Part shown: positions 588 through 52,717 of the stretch, piece by piece
Numbering within the stretch: position 1 is the stretch's first letter
Layout of the letters: the number at the start of each line of letters is the position of its first letter
Virus record (IMG/VR): IMGVR_UViG_3300037067_004901
Span: 1-64,000 of that record
Direction: 5' to 3' (one strand)
Origin: a virus
Lineage: Duplodnaviria; Caudoviricetes
DNA length: 64,000 nucleotides
Notes under the pieces: model-generated
The model's database searches: none
What the model was told of the DNA's origin: nothing
What the model saw: only the letters and a program-made list of their open reading frames with translations
Position numbers and translations under genes: made by a program

Positions 588-662
588 TGGCGAATCCGCT
601 AGGATTCGAACCTAGGTGTTTGCTTTTGGAGAGCAACATATTAGCCACTATATGACGGACTC
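588..662 (-). tRNA. tRNA-Trp(CCA)
   Basis: Cloverleaf GAGTCCG/CGGATTC, anticodon arm TTGCT-CTCCAAA-AGCAA, T-loop TTCGAAT, encoded CCA. Confidence 0.92.
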
Positions 663-804
663 TTTCTTGTCTTTATTTTTACATTCTTCACATATATCCC
701 ATTCTACAGTTTTATTTTTATCTGGACAACGACATTGTGTTATTGTCTTTAAACATATTTTACATTTTTTAATAAAGTGCGACATATGTTCCTTTCTGTT
801 TTTT

Positions 805-896
805 TGGCGGAAACTGTAGGATTTGAACCTACGAGCCGATATTAATCGACTAATACGTTAGCAGTGTATCGCCTTCAACCACTCGGCCAAGTTTCC
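805..896 (-). tRNA. tRNA-Ser(GCT)
   Basis: Acceptor GGAAACT, loop CTGCTAA, long variable arm, GCCA end. Confidence 0.92.
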
Positions 897-897
897 A

Positions 898-1116
898 TTA
901 TTTTTCAAAACTATAATTTCTAACCCTATCAGGGTCATAATCTTCATATATAAACGTTTTAATTTTATTGCAAATACAACATTGTTTTTTTATTTTAACT
1001 AAAGCATACCCATTTTTAAATACGTTTTCAGTATTTTTTTTGCATTTAGATTTTCTTTTTAAAACTAATTCTGAATCTAAAATATTATGATAACAATGTA
1101 TTAAATGCATAAACAC
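898..1116 (-). CDS. hypothetical protein
   Basis: ORF filling the gap between tRNAs on the coding strand. Confidence 0.4.
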   Translation of the reverse strand: MFMHLIHCYHNILDSELVLKRKSKCKKNTENVFKNGYALVKIKKQCCICNKIKTFIYEDYDPDRVRNYSFEK

Positions 1117-1124
1117 CTTTTTTT

Positions 1125-1201
1125 TGGTGCGTGCGATAGGACTCGAACCTATAAGAACTTAGTTTTGAGTTAAGTATGTCTGCCAATTGCATCACACACG
1201 C
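1125..1201 (-). tRNA. tRNA-Leu(CAA), short variable loop
   Basis: Loop CTCAAAA, T-arm ATAGG-TTCGAGT-CCTAT, ACCA end. Confidence 0.88.
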
Positions 1202-1202
1202 T

Positions 1203-1289
1203 TGGTGCGCAGGGAGAGAATCGAACTCTCACGTTCTTACGAACACAGGCTTTTAAGACCTATGCGGCTGCCAATTACGCCACCCACGC
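1203..1289 (-). tRNA. tRNA-Leu(TAA)
   Basis: Loop CTTAAAA, long variable arm, ACCA end. Confidence 0.92.
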
Positions 1290-1294
1290 TTATA

Positions 1295-1582
1295 TTATGT
1301 TTTGATTAATGTATTTTTTGCTCGTTCTTCTGCTAATCTATTCTTTAAATCGTCTCTTTGCTTAATTACTTTTTTTAATTCATCTTCTAAATAAATAACT
1401 TGGGATTTTAATTCAGTATTCTCTGGTTCTTTTACACCTTTATATATGAAATCATAAATACGTGCTTTTGCAACTAAAGATTCTTGAAAGAAGCGACCCT
1501 CTCTACTTTGAACTCTTGATAATACTGATAACGCTTGTTCTAATGTTTTTATTGGTGATAATTTACTTTTATTTTCTTCCAT
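1295..1582 (-). CDS. hypothetical coiled-coil protein
   Basis: 95-aa ORF with AAGGAG RBS. Confidence 0.6.
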   Translation of the reverse strand: MEENKSKLSPIKTLEQALSVLSRVQSREGRFFQESLVAKARIYDFIYKGVKEPENTELKSQVIYLEDELKKVIKQRDDLKNRLAEERAKNTLIKT

Positions 1583-1603
1583 TCTTTCTCCTTTTTATTT
1601 AAT

Positions 1604-1688
1604 TGGTGCGGATAGAAAGATTCGAACTTTCACGCCTTACAGCATATGTTTCTAAGACATACGTGGTTGCCAATTACACCATATCCGC
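1604..1688 (-). tRNA. tRNA-Leu(TAG)
   Basis: Anticodon arm TATGT-CTTAGAA-ACATA, long variable arm, ACCA end. Confidence 0.92.
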
Positions 1689-1696
1689 GTAAATTT

Positions 1697-1790
1697 TGGC
1701 GGAAGAGATAGGACTTGCACCTATATGTCTCGTTAAAAGACAGGCAGTTTTCAAGACTGTTCCACGCACTATACTGTGGTCAACTCTTCC
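1697..1790 (-). tRNA. tRNA-Ser(TGA), atypical D-arm and T-loop
   Basis: GGAAGAG/CTCTTCC acceptor, loop CTTGAAA, long variable arm, T-loop TGCAAGT, GCCA end. Confidence 0.8.
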
Positions 1791-1800
1791 TTATATATTT

Positions 1801-1876
1801 TGGCAGATGGGGTAGGATTCGAACCTACACATTACGAATTAACAGTTCGTCTCAATACCAGTTTTGATACCCATCT
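1801..1876 (-). tRNA. tRNA-Asn(GTT)
   Basis: ACGAA-CTGTTAA-TTCGT arm, T-loop TTCGAAT, GCCA end. Confidence 0.92.
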
Positions 1877-1887
1877 ACATTAATATT

Positions 1888-1962
1888 TGGTGCTTGAATC
1901 GAGTGTCGAGTCGAATCTTCTGCGCTTCAAGCAGACGCTCTTACCATTTAAGCTATTCAAGC
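1888..1962 (-). tRNA. tRNA-Phe(GAA), degenerate T-arm
   Basis: GCTTGAA/TTCAAGC acceptor, TCTGC-TTGAAGC-GCAGA arm, ACCA end; T-arm non-canonical. Confidence 0.75.
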
Positions 1963-1963
1963 T

Positions 1964-2041
1964 TGGACGCTAGAGTGAGATTTGAACTCACGATTGTAAC
2001 GTTTTGCAGACGTTTGCAATTGTCCGCTCTGCCATCTAGCG
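1964..2041 (-). tRNA. tRNA-Cys(GCA)
   Basis: AACGT-CTGCAAA-ACGTT arm, U73 discriminator, CCA end. Confidence 0.9.
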
Positions 2042-2044
2042 CAC

Positions 2045-2130
2045 TGGTAGACTGGGCGAGACTTGAACTCACAGTGGATAACTATCCGACAGCTTAAAGG
2101 GCTGTTGCTCTACCATTGAGCGACCAGTCT
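2045..2130 (-). tRNA. tRNA-Lys(TTT) with long variable arm and C33
   Basis: AGACTGG/CCAGTCT acceptor, ACAGC-CCTTTAA-GCTGT arm, extra GGATA-GT-TATCC hairpin, ACCA end. Confidence 0.82.
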
Positions 2131-3497: not shown

Positions 3498-3830
3498 CTA
3501 ACCATTATACCACGATTCTTGTATAACACTACAAGTATCATCAATGCCTAATTGTTTTAATTGTTGTTCTATTGATTTTTTAAAAAAACCAAAAGTTTCA
3601 TAATCTTTCATTGTGGATAATTCTTTACCTACATAAACATTATCTTCATCTGGGTCAGCTACACAATATAGTTTATGTTTATTAAATAAAGTCTCTGCGA
3701 AATCATAATCTTTCGTGTCAACATTATTTTTCTTTGCTACTTCTTTTAGTTTACTTCGTTCTAAAGATACACCATAAATACAAAAACTTGTTGTACTCGA
3801 ATTACTTACAAAACCATATCGTATTTTCAT
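3498..3830 (-). CDS. GFVSNSSS-motif protein 4 (MKIRYGFVSNSSTTSF)
   Basis: Shared N-terminal motif; RBS AAAGGAG. Confidence 0.8.
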   Translation of the reverse strand: MKIRYGFVSNSSTTSFCIYGVSLERSKLKEVAKKNNVDTKDYDFAETLFNKHKLYCVADPDEDNVYVGKELSTMKDYETFGFFKKSIEQQLKQLGIDDTCSVIQESWYNG

Positions 3831-3844
3831 AATACACTCCTTTC

Positions 3845-4357
3845 TTATTCACTAAAAACTTCTCCTCTTATCTTAATGTTAGCATCGTGCGATGCAATTG
3901 TTCCAGCAATGATATGTATTAATTCTCCGAAATCACACATATCATTAAACATTATTGTCCAAGTTCGTAATTCTATTCTATTTCTTGGACATACTGTTAA
4001 TTTTATATTATTTTCTTTCAGAATAGATAATACTAACTCTTTTGCGCTCATTAAATCCATATCTTTTAAAAGTTGATTATAGTATTTCACTTTATCTTCT
4101 GATTCTTTTAACCATATTTTATGTAATTCAAGACGATTTTTATCTTTTGCTTCTTTAATTTCTGAACGTGTTTCTTTTACAAATTTTTCTTGCATTTCTA
4201 TTTGTTTTTTTATAAAACATGTAAACCCTCGCTTCGAGAATATACTATATGTAAAATCTGCAAGCATATTTTGTACAAATTCTTCAAAATCAATTCCTAA
4301 AGTCAAAACATAACTTGCACTGCTACTATTGCTTACAAAACCATGTCTGATTTTCAT
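3845..4357 (-). CDS. GFVSNSSS-motif protein 3 (MKIRHGFVSNSSSASY)
   Basis: Shared N-terminal motif; RBS AAGGAG. Confidence 0.8.
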   Translation of the reverse strand: MKIRHGFVSNSSSASYVLTLGIDFEEFVQNMLADFTYSIFSKRGFTCFIKKQIEMQEKFVKETRSEIKEAKDKNRLELHKIWLKESEDKVKYYNQLLKDMDLMSAKELVLSILKENNIKLTVCPRNRIELRTWTIMFNDMCDFGELIHIIAGTIASHDANIKIRGEVFSE

Positions 4358-4367
4358 TTTATTCTCC

Positions 4368-4730
4368 TTATCCTAAATGTACACGTTTAGCATTAAACAC
4401 ATCAGATATTAAATCGAATATTTCATAAGGTATTGAATTATCATCCGCACTGTTGACGAGTATTAAGTCTTTCTTATATCCTATCTTTGAATTCCAACCT
4501 TCATTTAAATATCGTATAGCTTCTTTATCAGCTATTCTCGGTTCTTGAAAAATGTCTTCAAACTTTGCGTTTGAGTCGATAATCCCCATTGCTTTAACAA
4601 AATCAAATATTTGATGTGTTTTCTTGATAACTTCATCGAGTGTTACTTTTTTCCTGCCTTCATACATATTCACATTACAAACAAAACTACTTGAACTACT
4701 GTTACTGACAAATCCTAATCTAGTTTTCAT
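4368..4730 (-). CDS. GFVSNSSS-motif protein 2 (MKTRLGFVSNSSSSSF)
   Basis: Start re-assigned to the internal ATG at 4730, which overlaps the upstream stop (TAATG). Confidence 0.8.
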   Translation of the reverse strand: MKTRLGFVSNSSSSSFVCNVNMYEGRKKVTLDEVIKKTHQIFDFVKAMGIIDSNAKFEDIFQEPRIADKEAIRYLNEGWNSKIGYKKDLILVNSADDNSIPYEIFDLISDVFNAKRVHLG

Positions 4731-5038
4731 TAGCGCCCTCTCGTTCCATATATTATTTTTATATCTTCTTTTTTTAAACCACATTCTTCAATTGTTTTAA
4801 TAGCTTCTTTTGTTGCTAAATCAATATCTATTGCACCACACTCTAAATAATCTTCGTTATTATTATCCATAATGACTTTACCTAAAAAACCAGGTCCATA
4901 ACTATCACTTAAATAATTATTGCCATTATCTAATAAGTTTTTGTCTATCTTTTCATATTGTAATTTATTTAATGAAACACCAATAATAACAAAAGATGAA
5001 GAACTTGAATTACTTACGAATCCCATCCGAACTTTCAT
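4730..5038 (-). CDS. GFVSNSSS-motif protein 1 (MKVRMGFVSNSSSSSF)
   Basis: Shared N-terminal motif; RBS AAGGAG. Confidence 0.8.
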   Translation of the reverse strand: MKVRMGFVSNSSSSSFVIIGVSLNKLQYEKIDKNLLDNGNNYLSDSYGPGFLGKVIMDNNNEDYLECGAIDIDLATKEAIKTIEECGLKKEDIKIIYGTRGR

Positions 5039-5696
5039 TTGTTTTCTCCTTTTGTAACTTCATTTTTTTATAATATGGATTATTTTTTCCTTTTAAATAT
5101 TTATTTATATATTTTTGTTTTTCTTTTTTAGAAACATTATTCATCCAACATTTATTTTTAAGTTGTTTTTTATTTAATTTACTTTGATAATTATTTTTGC
5201 CTCTTAAATTTTTATTTAACCAATTTTCACGTTCTTCTATTGACATTTTATTTAAATAATGATTTTTCCCACTAATAATAGAATTATTATAATTTGGATT
5301 ATTTTTTCCTAATCTATATTTTTTCATCCATTGTTTCTTTTTATTTTTTCCCATCCTATTTAAATAATGAAATTCCCCCTTACATCCAAAATTATTATCT
5401 CCACCAACAGTAAGATTATATCCATATTTTTTATTTAACGGTGCATATGTTTTTAATTTTTTGATATAATATTTTTCCAGTTTGTTTAATTCACTTATCT
5501 TGCATATCCTTATATAATCAAATGTAAAATTATGAAATCCATATTTTTTGATAGCATAATCAAACCCTATTTTTGCAATTTTTGAGTGTCGTAAATGCCA
5601 CTTAATTCTTGTTTCTAAATTATGTATAGTTTGCCCTATATATTTTTTATTATTTATTTTATTAACTGCTAAATATATTATTCCTTTTCTATTCAT
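5010..5696 (-). CDS. GIY-YIG homing endonuclease with NUMOD-like repeats
   Basis: GIIY..NKINNKKYIGQT, E..YI, GYNLTVGG; repeated GKNNPxY motifs. Confidence 0.85.
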   Translation of the reverse strand: MNRKGIIYLAVNKINNKKYIGQTIHNLETRIKWHLRHSKIAKIGFDYAIKKYGFHNFTFDYIRICKISELNKLEKYYIKKLKTYAPLNKKYGYNLTVGGDNNFGCKGEFHYLNRMGKNKKKQWMKKYRLGKNNPNYNNSIISGKNHYLNKMSIEERENWLNKNLRGKNNYQSKLNKKQLKNKCWMNNVSKKEKQKYINKYLKGKNNPYYKKMKLQKEKTNESSDGIRK

Positions 5697-6747
5697 TGCT
5701 ACCTATTTTAAATAAAATACAATTTCTATTATTATTTAATAATTTATTTCTAAATTCATTTGTTTTCTTTCCGCGCCAAATATTTGCAAGAAAATGTCTT
5801 GTTTTTAACACATCAATACCTTTTTCCCAATTTATTTCATTTTCACAAAAACTACATGGAAAGAACATACCATCTACATTTATATAACCAGAAAATAAAC
5901 ATGATTCACATGGTTCTGCCATTTTTTCTAATGATTTATAATCTATTCTATCTTTTATAGCTCTTAAAAACATGTTACAACCACAACTATCAAATCCGAT
6001 TCTTACATTATTTGTAAAAGCATAATCTACTAATTTTTTATATTTATCCAGTGAAGTTAATTGATGTAATTTATTTCGCTTACCTTTGGGTTTAAGCCAT
6101 AAGAAAACGATTGCGTTTAACTTTTCAAGACGTTTATCTTCTTTTGATAATTTCATTAATTCAAAACATTTATCATATGTTTCCTCGCAAAGAAGTGCGT
6201 GTATATTAACTTGCTTCATATTTCTATCTGTTAATTTTTGCACAGCATTGAAACAAGTTTCAAAACCATAATTGCTAACAGCAACAGCACCGCATAATCT
6301 CGCAAGATTGTCTGCGTATTCATCAGTAAGATTATCCCCATTTATTGTAATATTAGGTATTATTTTATTATCTCTGCAAAATTGCATTATCTTAAATAAG
6401 TCGGGATTTGCAGAAATATCACCGATACCAAACGCCGCCTGCGTGAGTGTGTCGGGGAATTTTTTAAACAGTTCAACAAATGTTGAATAAGACATATTTT
6501 TACCTTTAGCTGTATTCGATTTATAACACCAATTACAAGCACGAGAACAGATGCTTGATAATTCTATATCCAGTATCTCTGGGCCTATAGCACTATATTG
6601 TGGGTCGTCATTTAAAGTAGCACCAAAACGGATAAAAACTCCGTTTGTTCTATTAAAAGAATAATTATAATTGTGTGATTTTAATAACTTTATTTCTTCA
6701 CCCTTTTTATTCTTTGTTTCTGCAATCGAATACGCTATCATCTTCAT
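5689..6747 (-). CDS. radical SAM protein with C-terminal SPASM/twitch-like cysteines
   Basis: CSRACNWC (CX3CX2C); C-terminal PCES...YINVDG.FFPCSFC...RNC. Confidence 0.9.
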   Translation of the reverse strand: MKMIAYSIAETKNKKGEEIKLLKSHNYNYSFNRTNGVFIRFGATLNDDPQYSAIGPEILDIELSSICSRACNWCYKSNTAKGKNMSYSTFVELFKKFPDTLTQAAFGIGDISANPDLFKIMQFCRDNKIIPNITINGDNLTDEYADNLARLCGAVAVSNYGFETCFNAVQKLTDRNMKQVNIHALLCEETYDKCFELMKLSKEDKRLEKLNAIVFLWLKPKGKRNKLHQLTSLDKYKKLVDYAFTNNVRIGFDSCGCNMFLRAIKDRIDYKSLEKMAEPCESCLFSGYINVDGMFFPCSFCENEINWEKGIDVLKTRHFLANIWRGKKTNEFRNKLLNNNRNCILFKIGSNE

Positions 6748-7040: not shown

Positions 7041-7424
7041 TTATAAGTAATATACTATATCAACAGTATATATTAATTTAAATACTAAGTGCCATAATTG
7101 GTCACTGATTGGATTCAGATTATTATTACATTTATTAAAGTCTATAATCCAATGTGAAAACAATTCTATCATAGCAAATGCGAATGATATATACAAATTA
7201 CGCATTAAAAAATATGATACAAAAAATACACAACCTGCTTGTATAACAGAATGATGAGTGAGCCACATATACCAAAGATTCATTGCTTTTTGACCTTTAG
7301 GAACTCTACTCAAATCTATTTCTCTGTTCTTATTTTTACCTTTTGCCATCGCATCTGTTTGCAATGCTGTATCTGCAATGCAATGCGCAAAAAGATATAA
7401 GAAAAATATCATTAAAAATTTCAT
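7041..7424 (-). CDS. DUF3307-like membrane protein
   Basis: AHCIADTALQTDAMAKGK, HWIIDFNK and DQLWH motifs. Confidence 0.75.
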   Translation of the reverse strand: MKFLMIFFLYLFAHCIADTALQTDAMAKGKNKNREIDLSRVPKGQKAMNLWYMWLTHHSVIQAGCVFFVSYFLMRNLYISFAFAMIELFSHWIIDFNKCNNNLNPISDQLWHLVFKLIYTVDIVYYL

Positions 7425-7425
7425 T

Positions 7426-8217
7426 TCAACACCCTAACATTGATGGAGCTTCGAGTTTAAATTTATTTTGCTCAACTCTTGTAATAATCTTATCTATCAC
7501 GCTTACAGGTATATTTTTGTGATTATAAACAATAGTATTTACAATCTCTTGTCTCGAATGGTCTCTAAAATTGTTAGGGTCTTTCATCATCGGATTATAT
7601 ATTTTTAATATCTTATCCATAATTTCATATGAGCAACCAATCTCTTGCTCATCTGTTTGATTTTCCCAAAGACCTGCACTCGGATGTTTTTTAATAACTT
7701 CTTTTGGAACTTTTAATTCTTTTGCTATCTCTCGTACTTCTGTTTTATATAGATGCCCTATCGGTTCTAATGCACAAGCACCATCACCATGAAGCGTGAA
7801 ATAACCTAAATCAAGCTCTGTCTTATTGCTCGTACCAACAACAAGTGCATTGTTTATCGCAGAGCTGTTATATAGAATCATCATGCGAACACGTGCCATA
7901 ATATTACCTAAACGACGCTTATCATCGGTATGAAACGCATCTACTATTGGTTTTATATTAAAGAAGGCAGCATGAATATTAAATTTATCAATTACACTTC
8001 TTGAATGATGTATATCTTTTTGTTCACCGTATGGTAACAAAAGTCCAGTTACATTTCTATTTCCTAATGCTCTGCTACACAGCGCAACGATAACAGCAGA
8101 ATCAAGTCCACCGGATACGCCAACAACAGCGTGTTTGAAATTTTTATATTTAAAAATATTCTGTATAAAATAAATACATTTTTCTACTTCACGTTTCGCA
8201 TCAAGTTTATTTTTCAT
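7426..8217 (-). CDS. nadE: NH3-dependent NAD+ synthetase
   Basis: SGGLDS, NIMARVRM, GTSNKTE..LGYFTLHGDG, LYKTEV, PSAGLW..QTDE. Confidence 0.93.
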   Translation of the reverse strand: MKNKLDAKREVEKCIYFIQNIFKYKNFKHAVVGVSGGLDSAVIVALCSRALGNRNVTGLLLPYGEQKDIHHSRSVIDKFNIHAAFFNIKPIVDAFHTDDKRRLGNIMARVRMMILYNSSAINNALVVGTSNKTELDLGYFTLHGDGACALEPIGHLYKTEVREIAKELKVPKEVIKKHPSAGLWENQTDEQEIGCSYEIMDKILKIYNPMMKDPNNFRDHSRQEIVNTIVYNHKNIPVSVIDKIITRVEQNKFKLEAPSMLGC

Positions 8218-8386
8218 TATTATTTTTCCTTTACTTTTAGTTCAATTAATTTTGGATTTATAAGTGCTACTATTGGTAATGTAAAACATAATAATCCTAA
8301 TATGACACAAGCAAAAGCGATAAATAGAAAACAAATAAATAAAAACGGTGTTAATATCAATGTCATAATAAATTTATATATTCTTT

Positions 8387-9373
8387 CTAACATCTTGCGC
8401 TCCTTAAATATTTTAGTCCATCATCTGTTATAAAACGTCTATGTGTTGTGATAGTATAACCAATTCTATCAAGATAACTTAAATACATGTCCGATAATGT
8501 TCGTTTATCTATATTAACAATACCTGCTAATGTATTTATACCACTACCACGAGGATGTTTTGATAATGCTTTTAATATAGACAAATCATTCTCTGTTATA
8601 CCGTTCTTTCGAATTTTAAAATCTTTAAATAAACTTCTTGTAACCATATTATCAATCTGTTTACTACGAGTAACTAATCTTTTGTTTTCACAACTTTCGA
8701 TAAAATTAACCGCTATTCTTGGATTACCTCTACTATTATTAGCGATAATTTTTGTGGCGGTTTCTGTTATATTATATTTCTTTTGATTAACATTAAATTT
8801 TATAATTTTTTGTAAATCTTCTTCTGAATAATCCTTTAAAGCGCAAGTTATCTTAAATCTGTCGCGCATTGGCTTCTTTAATAATGCTGGGTCAGTTGTA
8901 GCACCTATAATAGTGAATGGTTTTAATGTTATAGTATTGCCTTCTACAACTAAATCATTAACTAGTGTTCCTTCTTTAACATTATGAAAGAATATATAAT
9001 CTTCTAATATAGTATACCATAATGTCTCTGGTATATTTTTCTTACCTAAATCATGTATCTCATCAATAAATAAGATTGCGTTTTTATTTTCATTCTGTAA
9101 AGAATATATCTTGGTTAAATATTTTAAAATGTCGATTGGTGTATGAAAAGCAGAACCAATTGTTTCTATAAACTCGGTATTCTTCATCTCGTGAGCGCAA
9201 ATTTTACCAAGAGTAGTTTTACCTGTTCCAGCTGGACCATATAACAAGATGTGTGGTAAAATCGTCTTTCTAATCTTTGATGCTTTGATAGCGTCTCTTA
9301 AAATGTTTACAGCTTGTTCATTGGAATCTAATTTAAAATCTTCTAATGTTTTTGGTCTTATCGTAGTTGTCAT
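8387..9373 (-). CDS. ruvB: Holliday junction branch migration ATPase RuvB-like
   Basis: IRPKTLEDF, GPAGTGKTT, FIDEIH, FTIIGATT, RDRF, RGNPRIA. Confidence 0.88.
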   Translation of the reverse strand: MTTTIRPKTLEDFKLDSNEQAVNILRDAIKASKIRKTILPHILLYGPAGTGKTTLGKICAHEMKNTEFIETIGSAFHTPIDILKYLTKIYSLQNENKNAILFIDEIHDLGKKNIPETLWYTILEDYIFFHNVKEGTLVNDLVVEGNTITLKPFTIIGATTDPALLKKPMRDRFKITCALKDYSEEDLQKIIKFNVNQKKYNITETATKIIANNSRGNPRIAVNFIESCENKRLVTRSKQIDNMVTRSLFKDFKIRKNGITENDLSILKALSKHPRGSGINTLAGIVNIDKRTLSDMYLSYLDRIGYTITTHRRFITDDGLKYLRSARC

Positions 9374-9391
9374 AATATATCACCACCAATC

Positions 9392-10306
9392 TTATTGTAT
9401 GCTTCTTTGTTTCATCATTGTATGATATTTCCTTGCCTCCTTCATTGGTCTGATTTTTCTTATGTTACATATTTTAAAAATTTCATCAAATTTTTTCATA
9501 CTTTTTATATTAAATAATTTTTTTATTACTAATAAATCAACACCAGCCTCAATAGCAGTTTTCAGTGTTAATAACTTTTTACCTCTTAAACCACCTATTG
9601 GCTTTTCGACTCCCGCTCTTTTAGCTATGTTTGCTAATATAATTCTTATATGCAAAGCTGTTAGTGGTAAATTATTTTTTGTAAAGAATAAATATTCATT
9701 ATTGATTACAGTGCGTATGCGATATTGTTTTATTGCTTGCACAGCTTCATCAGAAATATATAGATACGGAATATCGTTTTCTGTGATATCTTCTGCGTCC
9801 AAATCTATCATATTATAATTTAATTTTAAGTTCTTTACTTTTATTTTTGCTATATCTTTTATATTAATAAAAGAAGTGTAAGCTAATTTCCAAATAGTTC
9901 TATCTCTATCTGATAAATTGCCTCTATTTACGAAACGTTTTTGTCTGCGCACATCTTTCAAAGATTCATAATCTAAATGAACTTTTAACTTAGGCGAAGT
10001 TACTTTAAATTTTGGTACTTCTGCAATAATATTTTTTTCTTTTAAAAATTGAAAGAAAAGACGCAATGCCCAATAATTATTTGTAACAGAAGAATATGTA
10101 TTAAAGCATTGTGTTTCTTTTTTTCTATAAAAGAATCCGTTTATATCTTCTACATCAATATCTTGTGGTTCTTTTTCTATAATTTTTAAAGCGTGATTTA
10201 CTATCTGTTCATTAAGATGTTTATAATGTGCACTCCAATTTCTTTGTTTCGAATATTCTTCTACATATTGCGTTACTAATGGATGCTTTTTTATACTTTC
10301 AGACAT
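9392..10306 (-). CDS. XerC/D-like tyrosine recombinase fold lacking catalytic residues
   Basis: ALRLFFQFL SAM-like N-domain, RDRTIWKLAYTS, YLFFTKNN.PLT, AKRAGVEK, AGVDLLVIKKL; R, HxxR, H and Y not recognisable. Confidence 0.7.
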   Translation of the reverse strand: MSESIKKHPLVTQYVEEYSKQRNWSAHYKHLNEQIVNHALKIIEKEPQDIDVEDINGFFYRKKETQCFNTYSSVTNNYWALRLFFQFLKEKNIIAEVPKFKVTSPKLKVHLDYESLKDVRRQKRFVNRGNLSDRDRTIWKLAYTSFINIKDIAKIKVKNLKLNYNMIDLDAEDITENDIPYLYISDEAVQAIKQYRIRTVINNEYLFFTKNNLPLTALHIRIILANIAKRAGVEKPIGGLRGKKLLTLKTAIEAGVDLLVIKKLFNIKSMKKFDEIFKICNIRKIRPMKEARKYHTMMKQRSIQ

Positions 10307-10385
10307 GTATCTCCTGCATCTATCATCAAATAGGCTGAAAACGTCGATTATAGCTCATTTAAACAGCTTTTAAGCGTATTTTAAA

Positions 10386-10628
10386 CTATGTTGCAGAGTA
10401 ACTATGACCACGTTTACCAGATGAAGATTTACGATTTAACGTAGCGATATAATCATCAATATCTGATTTCTTATAAATATTCTGCGTGCCTATCTTTTGA
10501 TAAATATTAATTTTTTTATTACTAATAAGATAAAATAATCTTGCTTTTGTCCAATGTCGTTTATATGTTTCATTGACATAAGACAATACGTTATCAGTAG
10601 TCAATAAACCATTAGATAATATTGACAT
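10386..10628 (-). CDS. excisionase-like HTH DNA-binding protein
   Basis: LLTTDNV...KIGTQNIYKKSDIDDYI pattern. Confidence 0.6.
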   Translation of the reverse strand: MSILSNGLLTTDNVLSYVNETYKRHWTKARLFYLISNKKINIYQKIGTQNIYKKSDIDDYIATLNRKSSSGKRGHSYSAT

Positions 10629-10654
10629 TTATATCACCTACTTTCGATATTATA

Positions 10655-11590
10655 TTATATTTTTTTACCAACAACAAGATATTCGTGGGCTTTAGCTGCC
10701 ATTTTACGTTCTTCTATTTGGCTTGCGAAACATTGTCCAATACATGATTTCCATTTTACAATAATAACATCATGTAATTTAAATCCTACATCAACAAATA
10801 GCTTCATTATATCCGCATGATATGGAAAGAATTTGTTATCCATTCTGAAATCATTTATATTAAAAATACAATATTTATCTTTCTTTAATACCCTATAACA
10901 TTCTGCGATAATAACTTTTATTCTCTCTAAAAACTTTTCATAAGAACCAGAAAGACCTAACTGTTCGGGTTCATCACCATACCACTCAACACAGTAATAT
11001 GGCGGTGAAGTATAAATCATATCTATCGAATTACTATCCTCAAGCATCTTTTCTGATGATTGTTCTCGCAACGTAATTGTATATGCAGATTGGAATAATT
11101 GACCTGTCGTAATCTGCTCTTTTACTTTACGATTAAACTCCATAAAAACTTTACTCACATCGTAACCGATATAGTTTCTATCTAAAGAAAAAGTAACTTG
11201 CATGCGGCTATTATGTCCTGCACATGGGTCTAAAATTGTATCACCACGATTTGAATAAAATTCTACAATAAACTTTGCTAATCCTGGAGGAAAAGTGCTT
11301 ACACCACTTTGTTTGCCTCTAACATTTTGGCTTGACATCGAGAACGCTTCTTGTGTTTCATTATATTCAACAACAGTGCCGTCAGATTTGGTATAACTTT
11401 TGATATTATACTTCATCTTTGAATGTTTTTCTTCCGCTTTGACCTGTTGTTTACGTTCTTCAAATTCTATGATATCTTTGCCCCAAGAATAGTCTGGTTC
11501 TATAACAGAAGTCGGAATAAATCCATACTTGTTCAAAACCATTTCTCTTATCTTACGGCTTTCTTGTAAATCTTCTTGCGTTTTTGCCAC
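10655..11590 (-). CDS. DNA amino-methyltransferase (N4-C/N6-A)
   Basis: ILDPCAG SAM-binding motif followed by catalytic TSPPY; HEY motif at the C-terminus. Confidence 0.88.
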   Translation of the reverse strand: MAKTQEDLQESRKIREMVLNKYGFIPTSVIEPDYSWGKDIIEFEERKQQVKAEEKHSKMKYNIKSYTKSDGTVVEYNETQEAFSMSSQNVRGKQSGVSTFPPGLAKFIVEFYSNRGDTILDPCAGHNSRMQVTFSLDRNYIGYDVSKVFMEFNRKVKEQITTGQLFQSAYTITLREQSSEKMLEDSNSIDMIYTSPPYYCVEWYGDEPEQLGLSGSYEKFLERIKVIIAECYRVLKKDKYCIFNINDFRMDNKFFPYHADIMKLFVDVGFKLHDVIIVKWKSCIGQCFASQIEERKMAAKAHEYLVVGKKI

Positions 11591-46999: not shown

Positions 47000-47075
47000 T
47001 GCGGGATGGACAAGTGGTTAAGTCGATTGGCTCATAACCAATATATCATGGGTTCAAATCCCATTCCCGCTACCA
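47000..47075 (+). tRNA. tRNA-Met(CAT), initiator-like
   Basis: ATTGG-CTCATAA-CCAAT arm, 1:72 mismatch, ACCA end. Confidence 0.88.
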
Positions 47076-47381
47076 ATTTGTCGCTGTGTGTCACGCACTA
47101 GAACGCACGATGTTTTTGCTACTCATCGTAGTTATAAATCATAGACCCAATGATACATATGTTTAATCATGTAGATGTGTATATCTGAAGCACAGACTTG
47201 AAGATATCTAGAGCGACGATTATTTGGGTGCGACAACTTTGCCCAGCTATTTAGTTGTTGTATGTATGATTATCTCGATAAGAGCATATACCCGTCAAAT
47301 AGCTATGGTATACGCGCGGCGGCGTGGAATCGCGTTGAGCATTGAGACACGCATTTTAAAAATAAGAAAGGAGATTTTTGA

Positions 47382-49010
<1,629 letters not shown>

Positions 49011-49041
49011 AATTTTTTTATAGATAAGGAGACTTTTTTTA

Positions 49042-49869
49042 ATGCAAGTCGTTGATTTATCAAAAAAACAAGAATTAGAAAAATTTGATGTTAAAGTAAG
49101 CGAAGAACTTATTGTAGCGATAAGTCAATACAAGAGTATTGATTATACAAAATCGGCTATAGAAGCATTAAAGAAAGAGGGCGTTAAGTTTACAACGCTC
49201 ATTTTGTTTGATGGTAGTTCTGATGAAGATTATGAGAAAATTCAGAATCTTGCTGATATAAGCATTCGAATAAAGAAACGGATAAATAGCTTACCACAAA
49301 TATGGAACATCATGTTTGGCGCAGCCAAGCTCACCGCGGCTAAATATTTGTATTGGCAAGGTTCTGATATGTTATTAAACGAGCATGGTTTAGAAAATAT
49401 GCTCATGACTATGAAGTTAGGTTATGACGCAGTAAGTCCAATTAAAATTGATAATGATGTTGAAAGATTTAAAAATTATAAAAGAGTTTATAATCGCGTA
49501 ATGCGATGTGCTGGTATAAATGATAGCGCATGTCTATTTCGTTTAGATAAGCTAGACTTTTTTTGTTTTGATGAAATGTATGCGCCGTATCAATTCGAGA
49601 CAAGCGCGTTGGGTTATGCGCTGTTTCGTAAAAAATGCAGAATGTGCATAGATGATAACGCTGTCATATTACATTATTGCAGTAAAGATATAGAGCATAG
49701 CCCAAAAGAGCGTGAAATCGGAAGTAAAACTTGGGATATGAAGCGCGATTATTTTTTAAAAGACGCAAGTGAAGATAAGAGATGGTTCTTTGAAAAATCT
49801 ATAATGAACAGCGAAATCGTAAAAGATATTGGGTTCCCAGCGCATATTTATTTAGGAGACCCAAAATGA
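49042..49869 (+). CDS. GT-A (family 2-like) glycosyltransferase
   Basis: LILFDGSSD, WN, SD, SACLFR, FDE.Y pattern. Confidence 0.6.
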   Translation: MQVVDLSKKQELEKFDVKVSEELIVAISQYKSIDYTKSAIEALKKEGVKFTTLILFDGSSDEDYEKIQNLADISIRIKKRINSLPQIWNIMFGAAKLTAAKYLYWQGSDMLLNEHGLENMLMTMKLGYDAVSPIKIDNDVERFKNYKRVYNRVMRCAGINDSACLFRLDKLDFFCFDEMYAPYQFETSALGYALFRKKCRMCIDDNAVILHYCSKDIEHSPKEREIGSKTWDMKRDYFLKDASEDKRWFFEKSIMNSEIVKDIGFPAHIYLGDPK

Positions 49870-50924
49870 ACATACTAGTTTGTGTCGGAGCAAGTGAACC
49901 GAGTTATACGAGTAGCAAGAGTTTTATTAGAGCGTTAAAACGCGCTGGGTATGATGTCAGAACGTGTGGTGCATATTATAAATACGATAGAGAACGCACA
50001 GAACAAGTCGATTTTGAATTAGAAGACAAATGTTTTCCAGAATTATATACATATGAAGAAGTATTAAAAAGCACTAAAGATTTTAAAGCAGATATTATAT
50101 TACAAATAGAACCACATTTTTATTTATGTGGGGAAAAACCAAAAGATATAAAAAGTTATTATTGGATTCTAGACCCACATCGAGGTGGTTATGCATACAG
50201 AAATCTTGCTAAACAAGGTGATTTTAATGCATTGTTTATGTCGCAAACTTATTTTTCTGATAGTTATTTAGAATTTGCAAAAAAAATTTATTTCTTTCCA
50301 CAAGCAGTAGATATAGATAGAATTAAATATGATGAAAACATTAAAGCAGAATGCGACATCGCGTTTATCGGTGAAACAGGCATTGCAGATAGATGCATGA
50401 GATACGACAAACGAGATGCAGATAATTATGAATATACGAATTTAATTAATGATAATTATATATTAGATTCAGAAATATATAAAGATTACGCAGAAAGAGC
50501 GAAATTGTTAATGTTGTTATCTCGTGGCTTTGATGTTCGTATATATAAAAAGAATTTTAATACAGATTATTCTAAAATAATACAAAAAGGTAAAATTGCT
50601 TTTCATCGTAGTTTATTTAAAGATATAACATTGCGAAATTTTGAATCTTTAGCTTTAAAGCGTGCGCTTGTATGCGATTACGTACCGAATCTAGAAAAGT
50701 TGATGATAAACTATAAGCATTGTCTTATGTATAAAGCTTTTGGATTCAATACAGAACTTGAAAACTTTAAACTTGATTATGAACAGGCGAAAGAAGCTGT
50801 TGACATTTTGCTAAAAGATGATAAAATGAGAAATGATATTGCAGAGAATGCGTATCAACATGTTATGAAATATCATACTTTTGATAATCGCGTTAAAGAA
50901 ATGATGAGCGTTATTACGGGATAG
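49866..50924 (+). CDS. CgeB-like GT-B glycosyltransferase
   Basis: YWILDPH, PQAVD, DIAFIG, LRNFE, IAENAY..V...HTFDNRV. Confidence 0.8.
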   Translation: MNILVCVGASEPSYTSSKSFIRALKRAGYDVRTCGAYYKYDRERTEQVDFELEDKCFPELYTYEEVLKSTKDFKADIILQIEPHFYLCGEKPKDIKSYYWILDPHRGGYAYRNLAKQGDFNALFMSQTYFSDSYLEFAKKIYFFPQAVDIDRIKYDENIKAECDIAFIGETGIADRCMRYDKRDADNYEYTNLINDNYILDSEIYKDYAERAKLLMLLSRGFDVRIYKKNFNTDYSKIIQKGKIAFHRSLFKDITLRNFESLALKRALVCDYVPNLEKLMINYKHCLMYKAFGFNTELENFKLDYEQAKEAVDILLKDDKMRNDIAENAYQHVMKYHTFDNRVKEMMSVITG

Positions 50925-51005
50925 GGTAATTGGTAGCCCAGCAGACTTTGAATCTGCCAGAACAAAATAGTTCGCGTGGAAGTTCGAATCTTTCTCCCGT
51001 AACCA
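50915..51005 (+). tRNA. tRNA-Gln(TTG) with long variable arm
   Basis: TACGGGA/TCCCGTA acceptor, GCAGA-CTTTGAA-TCTGC arm, extra GAAC-AAAATA-GTTC hairpin, ACCA end. Confidence 0.85.
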
Positions 51006-51443
51006 AAAAAGATAGGAGAGAATGATATGTATAAAGTAACAATAAAACTAAAGAACGTTGATTCTGTAGTTTATGATGATGTAGAAGATTATGATATTGA
51101 CGAAGTTACTATAGATTTAAGCATTGGTGAAAATAGGAAAATAATTTTTCCTCTTATTAATGTAGAATCAGTAGATATAGCAAAGTTAGATGAATCTTAA
51201 AAAAATGAAGATTATTTTAAGAAACGAGAATATAGAACAGATGAGAAAGCGTCACGAAAAAGAAATCGAGACGCTTCAGAAGAAATGTAAACATAAAGAA
51301 ATTAGTGACTGGATGGAGTATCATTTTGCAATTGGTCACTTTTCGCATTATGTAAAAGTTTGTAAATATTGTGGTAAAATTATAAAAGAAGATAAACCGA
51401 AATTCGTAACACATAATATAGGATTTGAAAAAGCAGTTAAATT

Positions 51444-51520
51444 GGGGGATTAGTAGCTAACTGGGAAAACATGTGCTTTGCAAGCATGAATTATCGGTTC
51501 GAATCCGATATCCTCCACCA
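51444..51520 (+). tRNA. tRNA-Ala(TGC)
   Basis: G3:U70 pair, loop TTTGCAA, ACCA end. Confidence 0.92.
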
Positions 51521-51708
51521 AAAAAAGGAGTGAAAGAAAGTGAAAAAAGCAAATAAGACGATACGACGCGAAAAAATAGCAGTAATCAATGCATGGATGA
51601 ATAAATTCCCATGTAAAAATTATTTTAAATATCAAGATGGCGGTTGTATTCATGACCGTATTAATGCACGCGAAATATATAATTTTATAGAAGCAAAATT
51701 TAGATAAT

Positions 51709-51785
51709 CAGGACGTGGGCTAGTTTGGTAAGTCACTCGGCCTGGGACCGAGTAATCGCTGGTTCAAATCCAGCCGTCCTGACCA
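51709..51785 (+). tRNA. tRNA-Pro(TGG) with C33
   Basis: CAGGACG/CGTCCTG acceptor, CTCGG-CCTGGGA-CCGAG arm, ACCA end. Confidence 0.88.
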
Positions 51786-51876
51786 ATTTTAATAGAGATA
51801 ATATGATTGAAATATGCGAGTTGTGTAAAGAATGTCCATATAAGAATATTTGTACTGAAACAGATAAATATGTGGA

Positions 51877-52218
51877 GTGTATATGACAGATGAAGAAATA
51901 TTACAAAAAGTAATCATCAAAGCAGAGAAGAATGGGTATAAAGGTCATATGCAGTATCTTCCCATGTTTCTCAAACGAGACCCAAGTAAAAAGAAAAAAC
52001 TTTCTAAAAAAGATTTCATGAAGTTTATGTCTCGTATTTGGTTTATTCATAAGAACGATATAATTTACTCACACGAATTTGCAAAAGCGTTTTTTGGTGA
52101 AAAAAAACATATGGAGTGTTGTGGGTCATTAGGTAATAATTTAAAAGAATATCAATATTACTTAATGTGGTTAGTTAAAATTCCACACCCTATAATAGAA
52201 CTGGAAAAATTTTTATGA
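51877..52218 (+). CDS. hypothetical phage protein
   Basis: MTDEEILQKVI.KAEKNGY...IIYSHEFAKAFFGE. Confidence 0.6.
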   Translation: MYMTDEEILQKVIIKAEKNGYKGHMQYLPMFLKRDPSKKKKLSKKDFMKFMSRIWFIHKNDIIYSHEFAKAFFGEKKHMECCGSLGNNLKEYQYYLMWLVKIPHPIIELEKFL

Positions 52219-52322
52219 CAATAAAAACTGTAATAAAGAATGGTAAAATTGTAATTAAAGATAAACATATCACACATAGACCAAAAAAATCACCGTGTGG
52301 TCAAAGAGTTAAAAAAATATGA

Positions 52323-52399
52323 GCGCGGTTTGTGTTAATGTTCGAGCATGTCAGTCTTCCAAACTGAAGGGGAGAGTTAAAGTCTCTCACCGCGCACCA
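52323..52399 (+). tRNA. tRNA-Gly(TCC)
   Basis: GCGCGGT/ACCGCGC acceptor, TCAGT-CTTCCAA-ACTGA arm, ACCA end. Confidence 0.88.
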
Positions 52400-52642
52400 A
52401 AATTATGAAACTATTAACATTATTTTCTATATCTATAACATTAATTAGTTTTCAGTTCGGATTTTTCTTTATCCAACAGCAACACAATGAATATAAGATG
52501 AATGATATTTTGAATTATTGTGAAAAAGTTAAGGATAAACTTGATATCAGTATTATAGATGAGCAAATTACAAGAAAAGAAGCTCAAATTTATATTAAAT
52601 CAATACAAAAAGATATAGAACGTAATAGTGTAATAAAAAAAC

Positions 52643-52717
52643 GCCCGCATAGCTTAGTTGGTAAAGCAGTAGTTTTGTAAACTTCAGACAGCCGTTCGAT
52701 TCGACTTGTGGGCTCCA
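52643..52717 (+). tRNA. tRNA-Thr(TGT)
   Basis: GCCCGCA/TGTGGGC acceptor, loop TTTGTAA, CCA end; some stem mismatches. Confidence 0.82.

Follow-up and report, generated by a model that had tools for sequence, protein, structure and literature searches.

Why should four neighbouring genes of a large uncultured phage, encoding small proteins that are otherwise unrelated to one another, all begin with the same 16 residues, and why should they lie close to a gene for a radical S-adenosylmethionine (rSAM) enzyme? This question is raised by positions 3498-6747 of the stretch of DNA considered here (hereafter the window), which comprises the first 64 kb of the 105.5-kb IMG/VR virus record IMGVR_UViG_3300037067_004901. 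The record has a GC content of approximately 30%, 14 tRNA genes, and a completeness estimated by CheckV at around 60%. The preferred answer, to which a probability of roughly 0.6 is given, is that the locus encodes a two-component protein-modification system, in which a single enzyme would modify a portable N-terminal tag carried by many different client proteins.

The four tagged genes of the window

A preliminary description of this stretch had reported four consecutive open reading frames (ORFs) that open with a common motif, and all four are present, on the minus strand, each preceded by its own Shine-Dalgarno sequence. The first encodes a protein of 102 residues (4730-5038, with the tag at 4991-5038) and an isoelectric point (pI) of 5.1, and is followed by genes for proteins of 120 residues (4368-4730, tag at 4683-4730), 170 residues (3845-4357, tag at 4310-4357), and 110 residues (3498-3830, tag at 3783-3830). 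An upstream ATG at 4784, which was the choice of the ORF lister for the second gene, was rejected, given that the Shine-Dalgarno sequence supports the ATG at 4730. The consensus start of the four proteins is MK[VTI]RxGFVSNSS(S/T)(S/T/A)S(F/Y), with the third tag ending in SASY, and the residues M1, K2, R4, G6, F7, V8, S9, N10, S11, S12, and S15 are invariant. No further copies of the motif were found in the 105.5-kb contig.

Beyond the tag, the bodies of these proteins of 102-170 residues are divergent, in agreement with the preliminary description. They are mutually unrelated, each falling in a separate body cluster, and three of them match distinct sub-families among the matches listed in a profile search with the four proteins. 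In the sub-family to which client 1 belongs, FVIIG follows directly on the tag and the C-terminal end is of the GTR(S/G)(C/R) type, and client 1 has full-length homologues in P0005, P0011, and P0012. The sub-family of client 2 ends in DDNSIPY...RVHLG and has 17 relatives among the matches listed. The neighbours of client 2 in the ESM Atlas are viral hypothetical proteins. The body of client 3 is a singleton in the set of viral loci, with relatives (P0014 and P0062) in the profile search, and its N-terminus aligns to the first 26 positions of phrog_7397. Client 4 falls in the largest sub-family (FCIYG...IGR...DDETG..FK...WYNG). Searches of Pfam, NCBIfam, and PADLOC recovered no credible family for any of the four clients.

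In the AlphaFold2 (AF2) model of client 4, which has a predicted local distance difference test (pLDDT) score of 85, a small alpha/beta fold has its first beta strand at residues 13-24, and residues 1-12 are modelled at low confidence, as a flexible extension outside the fold. To judge from this model, M1-S12, the invariant stretch, is probably exposed as an extension. The fold itself has no convincing relative in the structural searches (Foldseek, best E 0.037; VIA-wide, best Z 4.9), which recovered only a common alpha/beta arrangement.

The tag as a protein family

The survey of the tag covered 78 IMG/VR loci, which contain 318 unique tagged ORFs. Across these ORFs, G6, F7, S9, N10, S11, and S12 are conserved in 100% of the sequences, R4 in 99%, and K2, S15, and F16 in 98%. 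In approximately 99% of the ORFs, the first residue of the tag is also residue 1 of the protein, a strictness which suggests that recognition extends to the free N-terminus. Methionine aminopeptidase leaves the initiator methionine in place when residue 2 is a lysine, as it is here, and the tagged proteins should thus retain this methionine.

The codons of the tag vary within the window, where both the TCN and AGY families are used for serine, and both the CGN and AGR families for arginine. This had been taken previously as a sign that selection acts on the protein, and the 312 tags of other phages bear it out. In these tags, all six serine codons occur at each invariant serine position, and every synonymous codon family is used at each invariant position, which points to selection on the peptide rather than on the DNA or RNA.

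The profile of the four window proteins recovered 327 proteins from a collection of 5.8 billion. Among the matches listed, all begin with the same 16 residues, and the sub-families differ in the body and the C-terminus. A profile of the tag only (32 positions) matched 24,173 clusters, defined at 50% identity, with E <= 1e-3 among 1.84 billion representative proteins, and the tag is located at residue 1 in nearly all the matches listed. The top-scoring matches to this profile (P0123-P0130) have two tag matches in one predicted protein of 123-288 residues, and may be either read-through calls across two neighbouring tagged genes or genuine double-tag proteins. A tblastn search with a client protein returned nothing useful, probably through the masking of the serine run.

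The bodies of 312 client proteins form 101 BLASTP clusters, 71 of them singletons, and no Pfam domain was found in the representatives of the 101 clusters. Most clients are acidic (median pI 4.7), and 90% have a pI below 6. The tagged genes occur in arrays of up to 14 per locus, and no tagged protein of more than 298 residues was found, although this is weak evidence.

Coupling of the tag and the enzyme

If the tag is a partner of the rSAM enzyme, each should be found in the company of the other. Starting from the tag, a homologue of the window enzyme (33-61% identity) is present within 10 kb, and on the same strand, in 52 of the 78 tag-selected IMG/VR loci. Where it is full-length, the enzyme is in most cases immediately upstream of the array and in some downstream of it; the gene order varies while adjacency is kept. 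Of ten larger contigs that were checked in full and have no nearby enzyme, six encode it in another place, and among these are all three contigs with a completeness of at least 90%. The other four, which lack the enzyme, are fragments with a completeness of 26-79%. Starting from the enzyme, at least one strict tag is found within 10 kb in 71 of the 80 enzyme-selected IMG/VR loci, and 286 of the 287 tags in these loci are on the strand of the enzyme. The pairing extends to the GTDB genomes, in which an adjacent tag accompanies the enzyme in 15 of 18 enzyme-selected loci, all but two of them labelled as metagenome-assembled genomes (MAGs) and several binned as archaea.

The comparison of all neighbourhoods against each other revealed no third conserved gene, the next most frequent family (ThyX-like by eye) being present in 11 of 79, which indicates that the system has two components. 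The preliminary description had named tagged proteins that usually occur without the enzyme as the observation that would speak against it, and the counts in both directions show the reverse. Its interpretation of the locus as a tag-directed maturation system is thus supported at the genomic level, by the two-way coupling together with the kinship of the enzyme's fold. An apparent fusion of the enzyme and a client in locus L035 was rejected, given that a stop codon separates the two genes.

One locus from a Promethearchaeota MAG (L085, positions 7831-11479, on a 793-kb contig binned as Asgard archaeal) has an rSAM gene and one convergent tagged gene. This pair adjoins a gene for an OLD-family ATPase-TOPRIM nuclease (AAA_15, E 5e-23; OLD-like TOPRIM, E 6e-11), a setting that resembles a defence island.

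The enzyme is also encoded, at approximately 40% identity, by 182 deposited phage genomes. Most of these are T4-like phages of Klebsiella, Enterobacter, Cronobacter, and Citrobacter, and the Escherichia coli phages RB16, RB43, Lw1, and phT4A are also among them. In the Klebsiella phage KP15, for example, the enzyme is KP15_135, and the tagged genes are KP15_97 and KP15_102, each of which begins MKIRSGFVSNSSSSSF, while RB16 encodes the enzyme (RB16p156) and two tagged ORFs. The motif string was not found in the literature searched, and the papers on KP15/KP27 and the slopekviruses do not discuss these genes. Between KP15_97 and KP15_102 lies KP15_100 (67826-70042 of the record), which encodes a protein of 738 residues annotated with a MIDAS (vWA-type) site. 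Kaur et al. 2020 (PMC7159879) describe conflict systems that include vWA proteins, and the presence of KP15_100 among the tagged genes may be a coincidence.

The radical SAM enzyme

The rSAM gene of the window (5689-6747, minus strand) encodes a protein of 352 residues that matches PF04055 (E 1.3e-8) and phrog_7293 (E 4e-80). The PF04055 score of 35.7 bits lies above the cut-off of 29.5 bits, and the AF2 model of the enzyme (pLDDT 95) resembles rSAM structures, so that it belongs in this superfamily. The protein had been credited at the outset with a CX3CX2C motif and with SPASM- or twitch-like cysteines. The motif corresponds to C67/C71/C74, which are invariant in an alignment of 41 homologues, and auxiliary cysteines are indeed present, but in only one set. 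These are C255, C280, C298, and C343, located in the C-terminal twitch/SPASM-like region, and as the only further invariant cysteines of the 41 homologues, they are enough for one auxiliary cluster. Twitch-type rSAM enzymes, such as BtrN and SkfB, have a shortened C-terminal domain in which cysteines ligate one auxiliary cluster, and the window enzyme may be of this type. The SPASM model (PF13186) scores 21.0 bits, against a cut-off of 21.5 bits, and the four invariant auxiliary cysteines depart from the seven-cysteine pattern (CX9-15GX4C ... CX2CX5CX3C ... C) with which this domain binds two auxiliary clusters. The first half-motif of the pattern is visible by eye, and the CX2CX5CX3C block was not seen. 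The profile of the enzyme aligns to the twitch region of BtrN (E 7e-4), which, together with SkfB (E 1e-3), is the best sequence-profile match in the PDB. The NCBIfam models provided weak matches, in the core region, to the SPASM maturases (tungsten-cofactor, mycofactocin, ScmE, and PqqE), far under their cut-offs.

The structural comparison is more informative about what such an enzyme may act on. The top structures recovered by Foldseek are those of peptide or protein modifiers, including SuiB (E 2.5e-11), SkfB (ranked 6th), anSMEcpe (E 7.8e-9), TigE, and CteB, with E values for the SuiB, SkfB, CteB, TigE, and anSME group ranging from 2.5e-11 to 2.5e-8. BtrN is ranked 23rd. The enzyme has in common with these maturases the CX3CX2C core and a predicted C-terminal auxiliary Fe-S domain, as well as its linkage to the tagged genes, given that the SPASM/twitch maturases act on a genetically linked peptide or protein. 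It differs from them in its marginal sequence similarity, in having only four conserved auxiliary cysteines, and in the lack of a PqqD-like recognition domain, the N-terminal winged helix by which some maturases bind a leader peptide, given that no PqqD-type Pfam match was found and the model shows four beta strands in the N-terminal domain. The putative substrates also differ from the leader-core peptides of the maturases of ribosomally made, post-translationally modified peptides (RiPPs), in that they would be whole folded proteins of 100-280 residues with an N-terminal tag. The enzyme does not qualify as an anSME, since the tag lacks the (C/S)-x-(P/A)-x-R motif and there is one auxiliary set of cysteines rather than two clusters, and no sulfatase gene was found in the neighbourhood of the enzyme.

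Ahead of the barrel, the model has an extra beta domain of four strands (approximately residues 7-41). Few parts of the family are as well conserved as its motif, YNY.F....G.F.RWG...EDDP. It is plausible, on the modelled structure, that this domain is the element that binds the tag.

Both the window enzyme (E 6e-4) and its bacterial homologue (E 4e-12) match PADLOC models of the prokaryotic viperins (pVip), which are rSAM proteins with a nucleotide-binding pocket and no auxiliary-cluster domain, often linked to a kinase. These matches invite a different explanation, in which the enzyme would be a viperin-like or other rSAM protein that modifies small molecules or nucleotides. The tagged proteins would then be a separate family, with an N-terminus that is simply a conserved structural strand, and residues 13-24 of the client do make the first beta strand of its fold. 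There is very little chance that this is correct. The pVip matches are weak and restricted to the generic rSAM core, the enzyme has an auxiliary set of cysteines and an extra N-terminal domain, and viperin is ranked 26th or lower by Foldseek, far below the peptide modifiers. A common structural role is also unlikely for a tag followed by unrelated bodies, and viperin products were undetected for Avap1, the analogous rSAM protein of a bacterial defence operon (PMC11564622).

A sister system in bacteria

The tag and the enzyme are not confined to viruses, and a sister form is found in Avs2-like STAND cassettes of Proteobacteria. A tblastn search of plasmids recovered enzymes with approximately 30% identity in Agrobacterium, Rhizobium, and Rhodobacter, and the same cassette order is found in all four of the plasmid loci examined and in a genome of Vibrio parahaemolyticus. 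The first gene of the cassette encodes a protein of approximately 880 residues whose annotation names a SMEK domain, and which is split between two ORFs in Rhizobium. Two of these proteins were scanned, and both matched SMEK_N and the PADLOC Avs2 model (best E 8e-27), one of them also matching NACHT. The following genes encode an untagged protein of 121-125 residues, a tagged protein of 131-133 residues, and the rSAM enzyme. In the chromosome of a Methylomonas (locus L109, 4446-9441), the three downstream genes are intact and the STAND gene is cut by IS66. This cassette adjoins F-type conjugation genes. The bacterial context as a whole suggests a connection with STAND immune sensors.

The tagged protein of the bacteria is a single conserved family (301 matches, with approximately 50% full-length identity), and its tag reads M-K-[IVL]-[KR]-x-D-F-V-[ST]-N-S-S-S-T-S-F. 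The core F-V-(S/T)-N-S-S-S-x-S-F is thus common to the phage and bacterial forms, despite an identity of only 30% between the enzymes, and positions 4 and 6 change with the clade of the enzyme, being R and G in the phages, and mostly K and always D in 120 bacterial tags. A glycyl-radical site at R-x-G-F was also considered and ruled out, as the spacing is unlike that of R-V-x-G-Y and each of the 120 bacterial tags has Asp in place of Gly6.

The nearest published system in kind is KpAvs2-Avap1-Avap2, a Klebsiella pneumoniae operon for defence against phages (Bechon et al. 2024, PMC11564622). In this operon, the rSAM protein Avap1 is required for defence against T2 and the small protein Avap2 binds the STAND protein, the roles of both Avap1 and Avap2 being unknown (PMC11564622). 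Six bacterial loci likewise join an Avs2-like STAND gene, a small protein, and an rSAM enzyme, a likeness of gene content. Avap2 was defined by an HHpred match to DUF6375 (PMC11564622), whose model (PF19902) does not match the proteins discussed here, with no match in the window contig, in two plasmid records and one MAG genome, or in 400 genomes of the class of MAG G011. The window also differs from the Klebsiella operon in that its neighbourhood has no STAND gene, and that it encodes four diverse clients rather than one conserved partner.

Another association of this type was described by Kaur et al. 2020 (PMC7159879), who linked FxSxx-COOH peptides, rSAM/SPASM enzymes, and STAND-type NTPases. 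In both cases, an F-x-S peptide, a SPASM-type rSAM enzyme, and STAND NTPases occur together. In contrast with the FxSxx and triceptide systems, the motif here is N-terminal, on full proteins, and present once per protein, and no FxsB-type NCBIfam model was found among the matches at E <= 0.1.

A broader proposal, which is rather unlikely, is that the phages and the bacterial Avs2-type STAND (NLR-like) cassettes use one and the same tag code, by which a covalent mark, added by the rSAM enzyme to the N-terminal FV(S/T)NSSS tag, would allow a protein to engage the STAND machinery. One conserved marked partner would arm or restrain the sensor in the bacteria, and in the phages, which have an enzyme of their own, arrays of rapidly diversifying marked proteins would act as decoys or inhibitors of such sensors.

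The bacterial cassettes also bear on a further explanation of the phage arrays. The internal proteins of phage T4 are diverse small proteins, encoded in tandem, that share a short N-terminal capsid-targeting sequence, which is cleaved. The tandem, hypervariable small proteins with a common N-terminal peptide resemble the loci of these internal proteins, and the system is present in T4-like phages. By this analogy, the tag might be a sorting signal, such as a capsid-targeting sequence for head loading and injection, and the enzyme would be either unrelated or involved in preparing the signal. This is highly improbable, however, given that the same pair of tag and enzyme is found in bacterial STAND cassettes, which have no capsid, and that the tag differs in sequence from that of T4 and has none of the acidic residues on which the T4 prohead protease relies. 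In addition, the operon is located amid accessory genes of an early type (NAD synthase, RuvB-like, and methylase), and the tight two-way linkage with the rSAM enzyme would be left without an explanation. We know of no modifying enzyme associated with the T4 internal proteins.

Proposed mechanism

Under the modification reading favoured here, a twitch/SPASM-type rSAM enzyme would bind the 16-residue tag M-K-h-R-x-G-F-V-S-N-S-S-S/T-S/T-S-F (where h is I, V, or T) at the extreme N-terminus of the client, and would carry out a radical (hydrogen-abstraction) modification within the conserved core F-V-(S/T)-N-S-S-S. Every tagged client would be modified, which in the window would mean four unrelated small proteins, and the modification would give the clients some common property. 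These clients may be seen as fast-diversifying, small, and mostly acidic accessory proteins of the phage, probably host-takeover or counter-defence effectors. We infer that the tag is the substrate, and not merely a docking handle, and the same applies to the chemistry and to the biological role of the clients.

Three types of chemistry, each with a precedent, may be envisaged. The triceptide synthases install three-residue cyclophanes, cross-linked from ring to C-beta, on aromatic-X-X motifs (PMC11499958), and the invariant F7-V8-(S/T)9 of the tag fits this pattern, so that a cyclophane cross-link from Phe7 to Ser9 is a candidate, albeit a purely hypothetical one. A serine may instead be oxidized to give an aldehyde of the formylglycine type. 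The rSAM dehydrogenases anSME and BtrN, which were both found among the matches, carry out reactions of this kind. Epimerization is another candidate.

The tag may, alternatively, be a docking peptide only. In this case, the tagged proteins would serve as exchangeable adaptors or regulators, docking on the enzyme and steering it to host proteins, nucleic acids, or small molecules, in much the same way as the F-box-type adaptors, which have a short motif in common and bodies that differ. This arrangement would also account for the co-occurrence of the two components, for bodies that are so diverse, and for a tag kept strictly at the N-terminus, and the small accessory protein of the KpAvs2 operon, Avap2, works by binding to a partner (PMC11564622). 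Even so, docking alone is judged decidedly unlikely, as the clients are very small and have no recognizable binding domains, the invariant stretch, rich in serine and asparagine, is more typical of a substrate loop than of an interface, and the nearest structures of the enzyme modify the peptide that they bind.

A number of points weigh against the modification of the tag by the enzyme. The system is known here from genes and predicted structures alone, and the enzyme is very distant in sequence from every characterized rSAM protein (best PDB E 7e-4 to 1e-3), a kinship so marginal that the type of reaction cannot be read from homology. Nine of the 80 enzyme loci have no strict tag within 10 kb, and the tagged genes of KP15 and RB16 are located approximately 20 kb from the enzyme, which indicates that co-transcription is not required. 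The low AF2 confidence of the tag may merely reflect its invariance, which provides no covariation signal, rather than true flexibility. The role proposed for the clients, in turn, is based only on their size, acidity, diversity, and tandem arrangement.

Genomic surroundings

All the genes between 3498 and 6747 are on the minus strand and densely packed, with a spacing of -8 to +14 nucleotides, and no terminator-like sites were seen on this strand within the interval, which fits a single operon. The preliminary description had the tagged ORFs following the rSAM gene in one operon. The spacing is consistent with this, but they do not follow it directly, given that a GIY-YIG homing endonuclease gene (5010-5696, minus strand; phrog_314, E 4e-17; phrog_5123, GIY-YIG, E 1.8e-7) separates the rSAM gene from the first of the tagged genes, overlapping both of these, in the same transcription unit. 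Endonuclease ORFs related to this gene are found in just six of 79 neighbourhoods, and it thus looks like a recent mobile insertion rather than a conserved part of the system. A promoter scan gave a signal no higher than the shuffled expectation, and the nucleotide sequence of the region had no match among 50,697 phage records.

The upstream neighbours (7041-11590, minus strand) encode a DUF3307 membrane protein, an NAD synthase (PF02540, E 8e-69), a RuvB-like AAA+ protein, a tyrosine-recombinase-like protein, and an N6/N4 DNA methylase, and an HD-domain protein is encoded at 138-566. There are two clusters of tRNA genes, one with eight genes at 588-2130 (minus strand) and the other with six genes at 47000-52717 (plus strand). 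The former is interspersed with small cysteine-rich, zinc-ribbon-like ORFs, such as that at 2640-2897, with weak, sub-threshold matches to the Pfam zinc ribbons. Both the GC skew and the strand of the genes switch near 42 kb.

Biological significance

The system formed by the tag and the enzyme is widespread and experimentally tractable, and has no published description in the literature searched. Its presence in the E. coli phage RB16 and the Klebsiella phage KP15 permits direct testing by standard genetics and mass spectrometry. If the proposed mechanism is correct, this would be a post-translational modification of very large reach, given the 24,173 tagged clusters, and one that acts on whole folded proteins through a portable N-terminal tag of 16 residues, unlike the leader-peptide logic of the RiPPs. 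It would also offer a common handle on thousands of unannotated phage proteins, and a short tag that steers radical chemistry to any protein could serve as a tool for protein engineering.

In the bacteria, the same mechanism would provide a concrete hypothesis for the unexplained rSAM partner of the Avs2-type immune operons. If, in addition, the phages and the bacteria do read a single tag code, the system would represent a very widespread and unrecognized layer of immune and counter-immune signalling.

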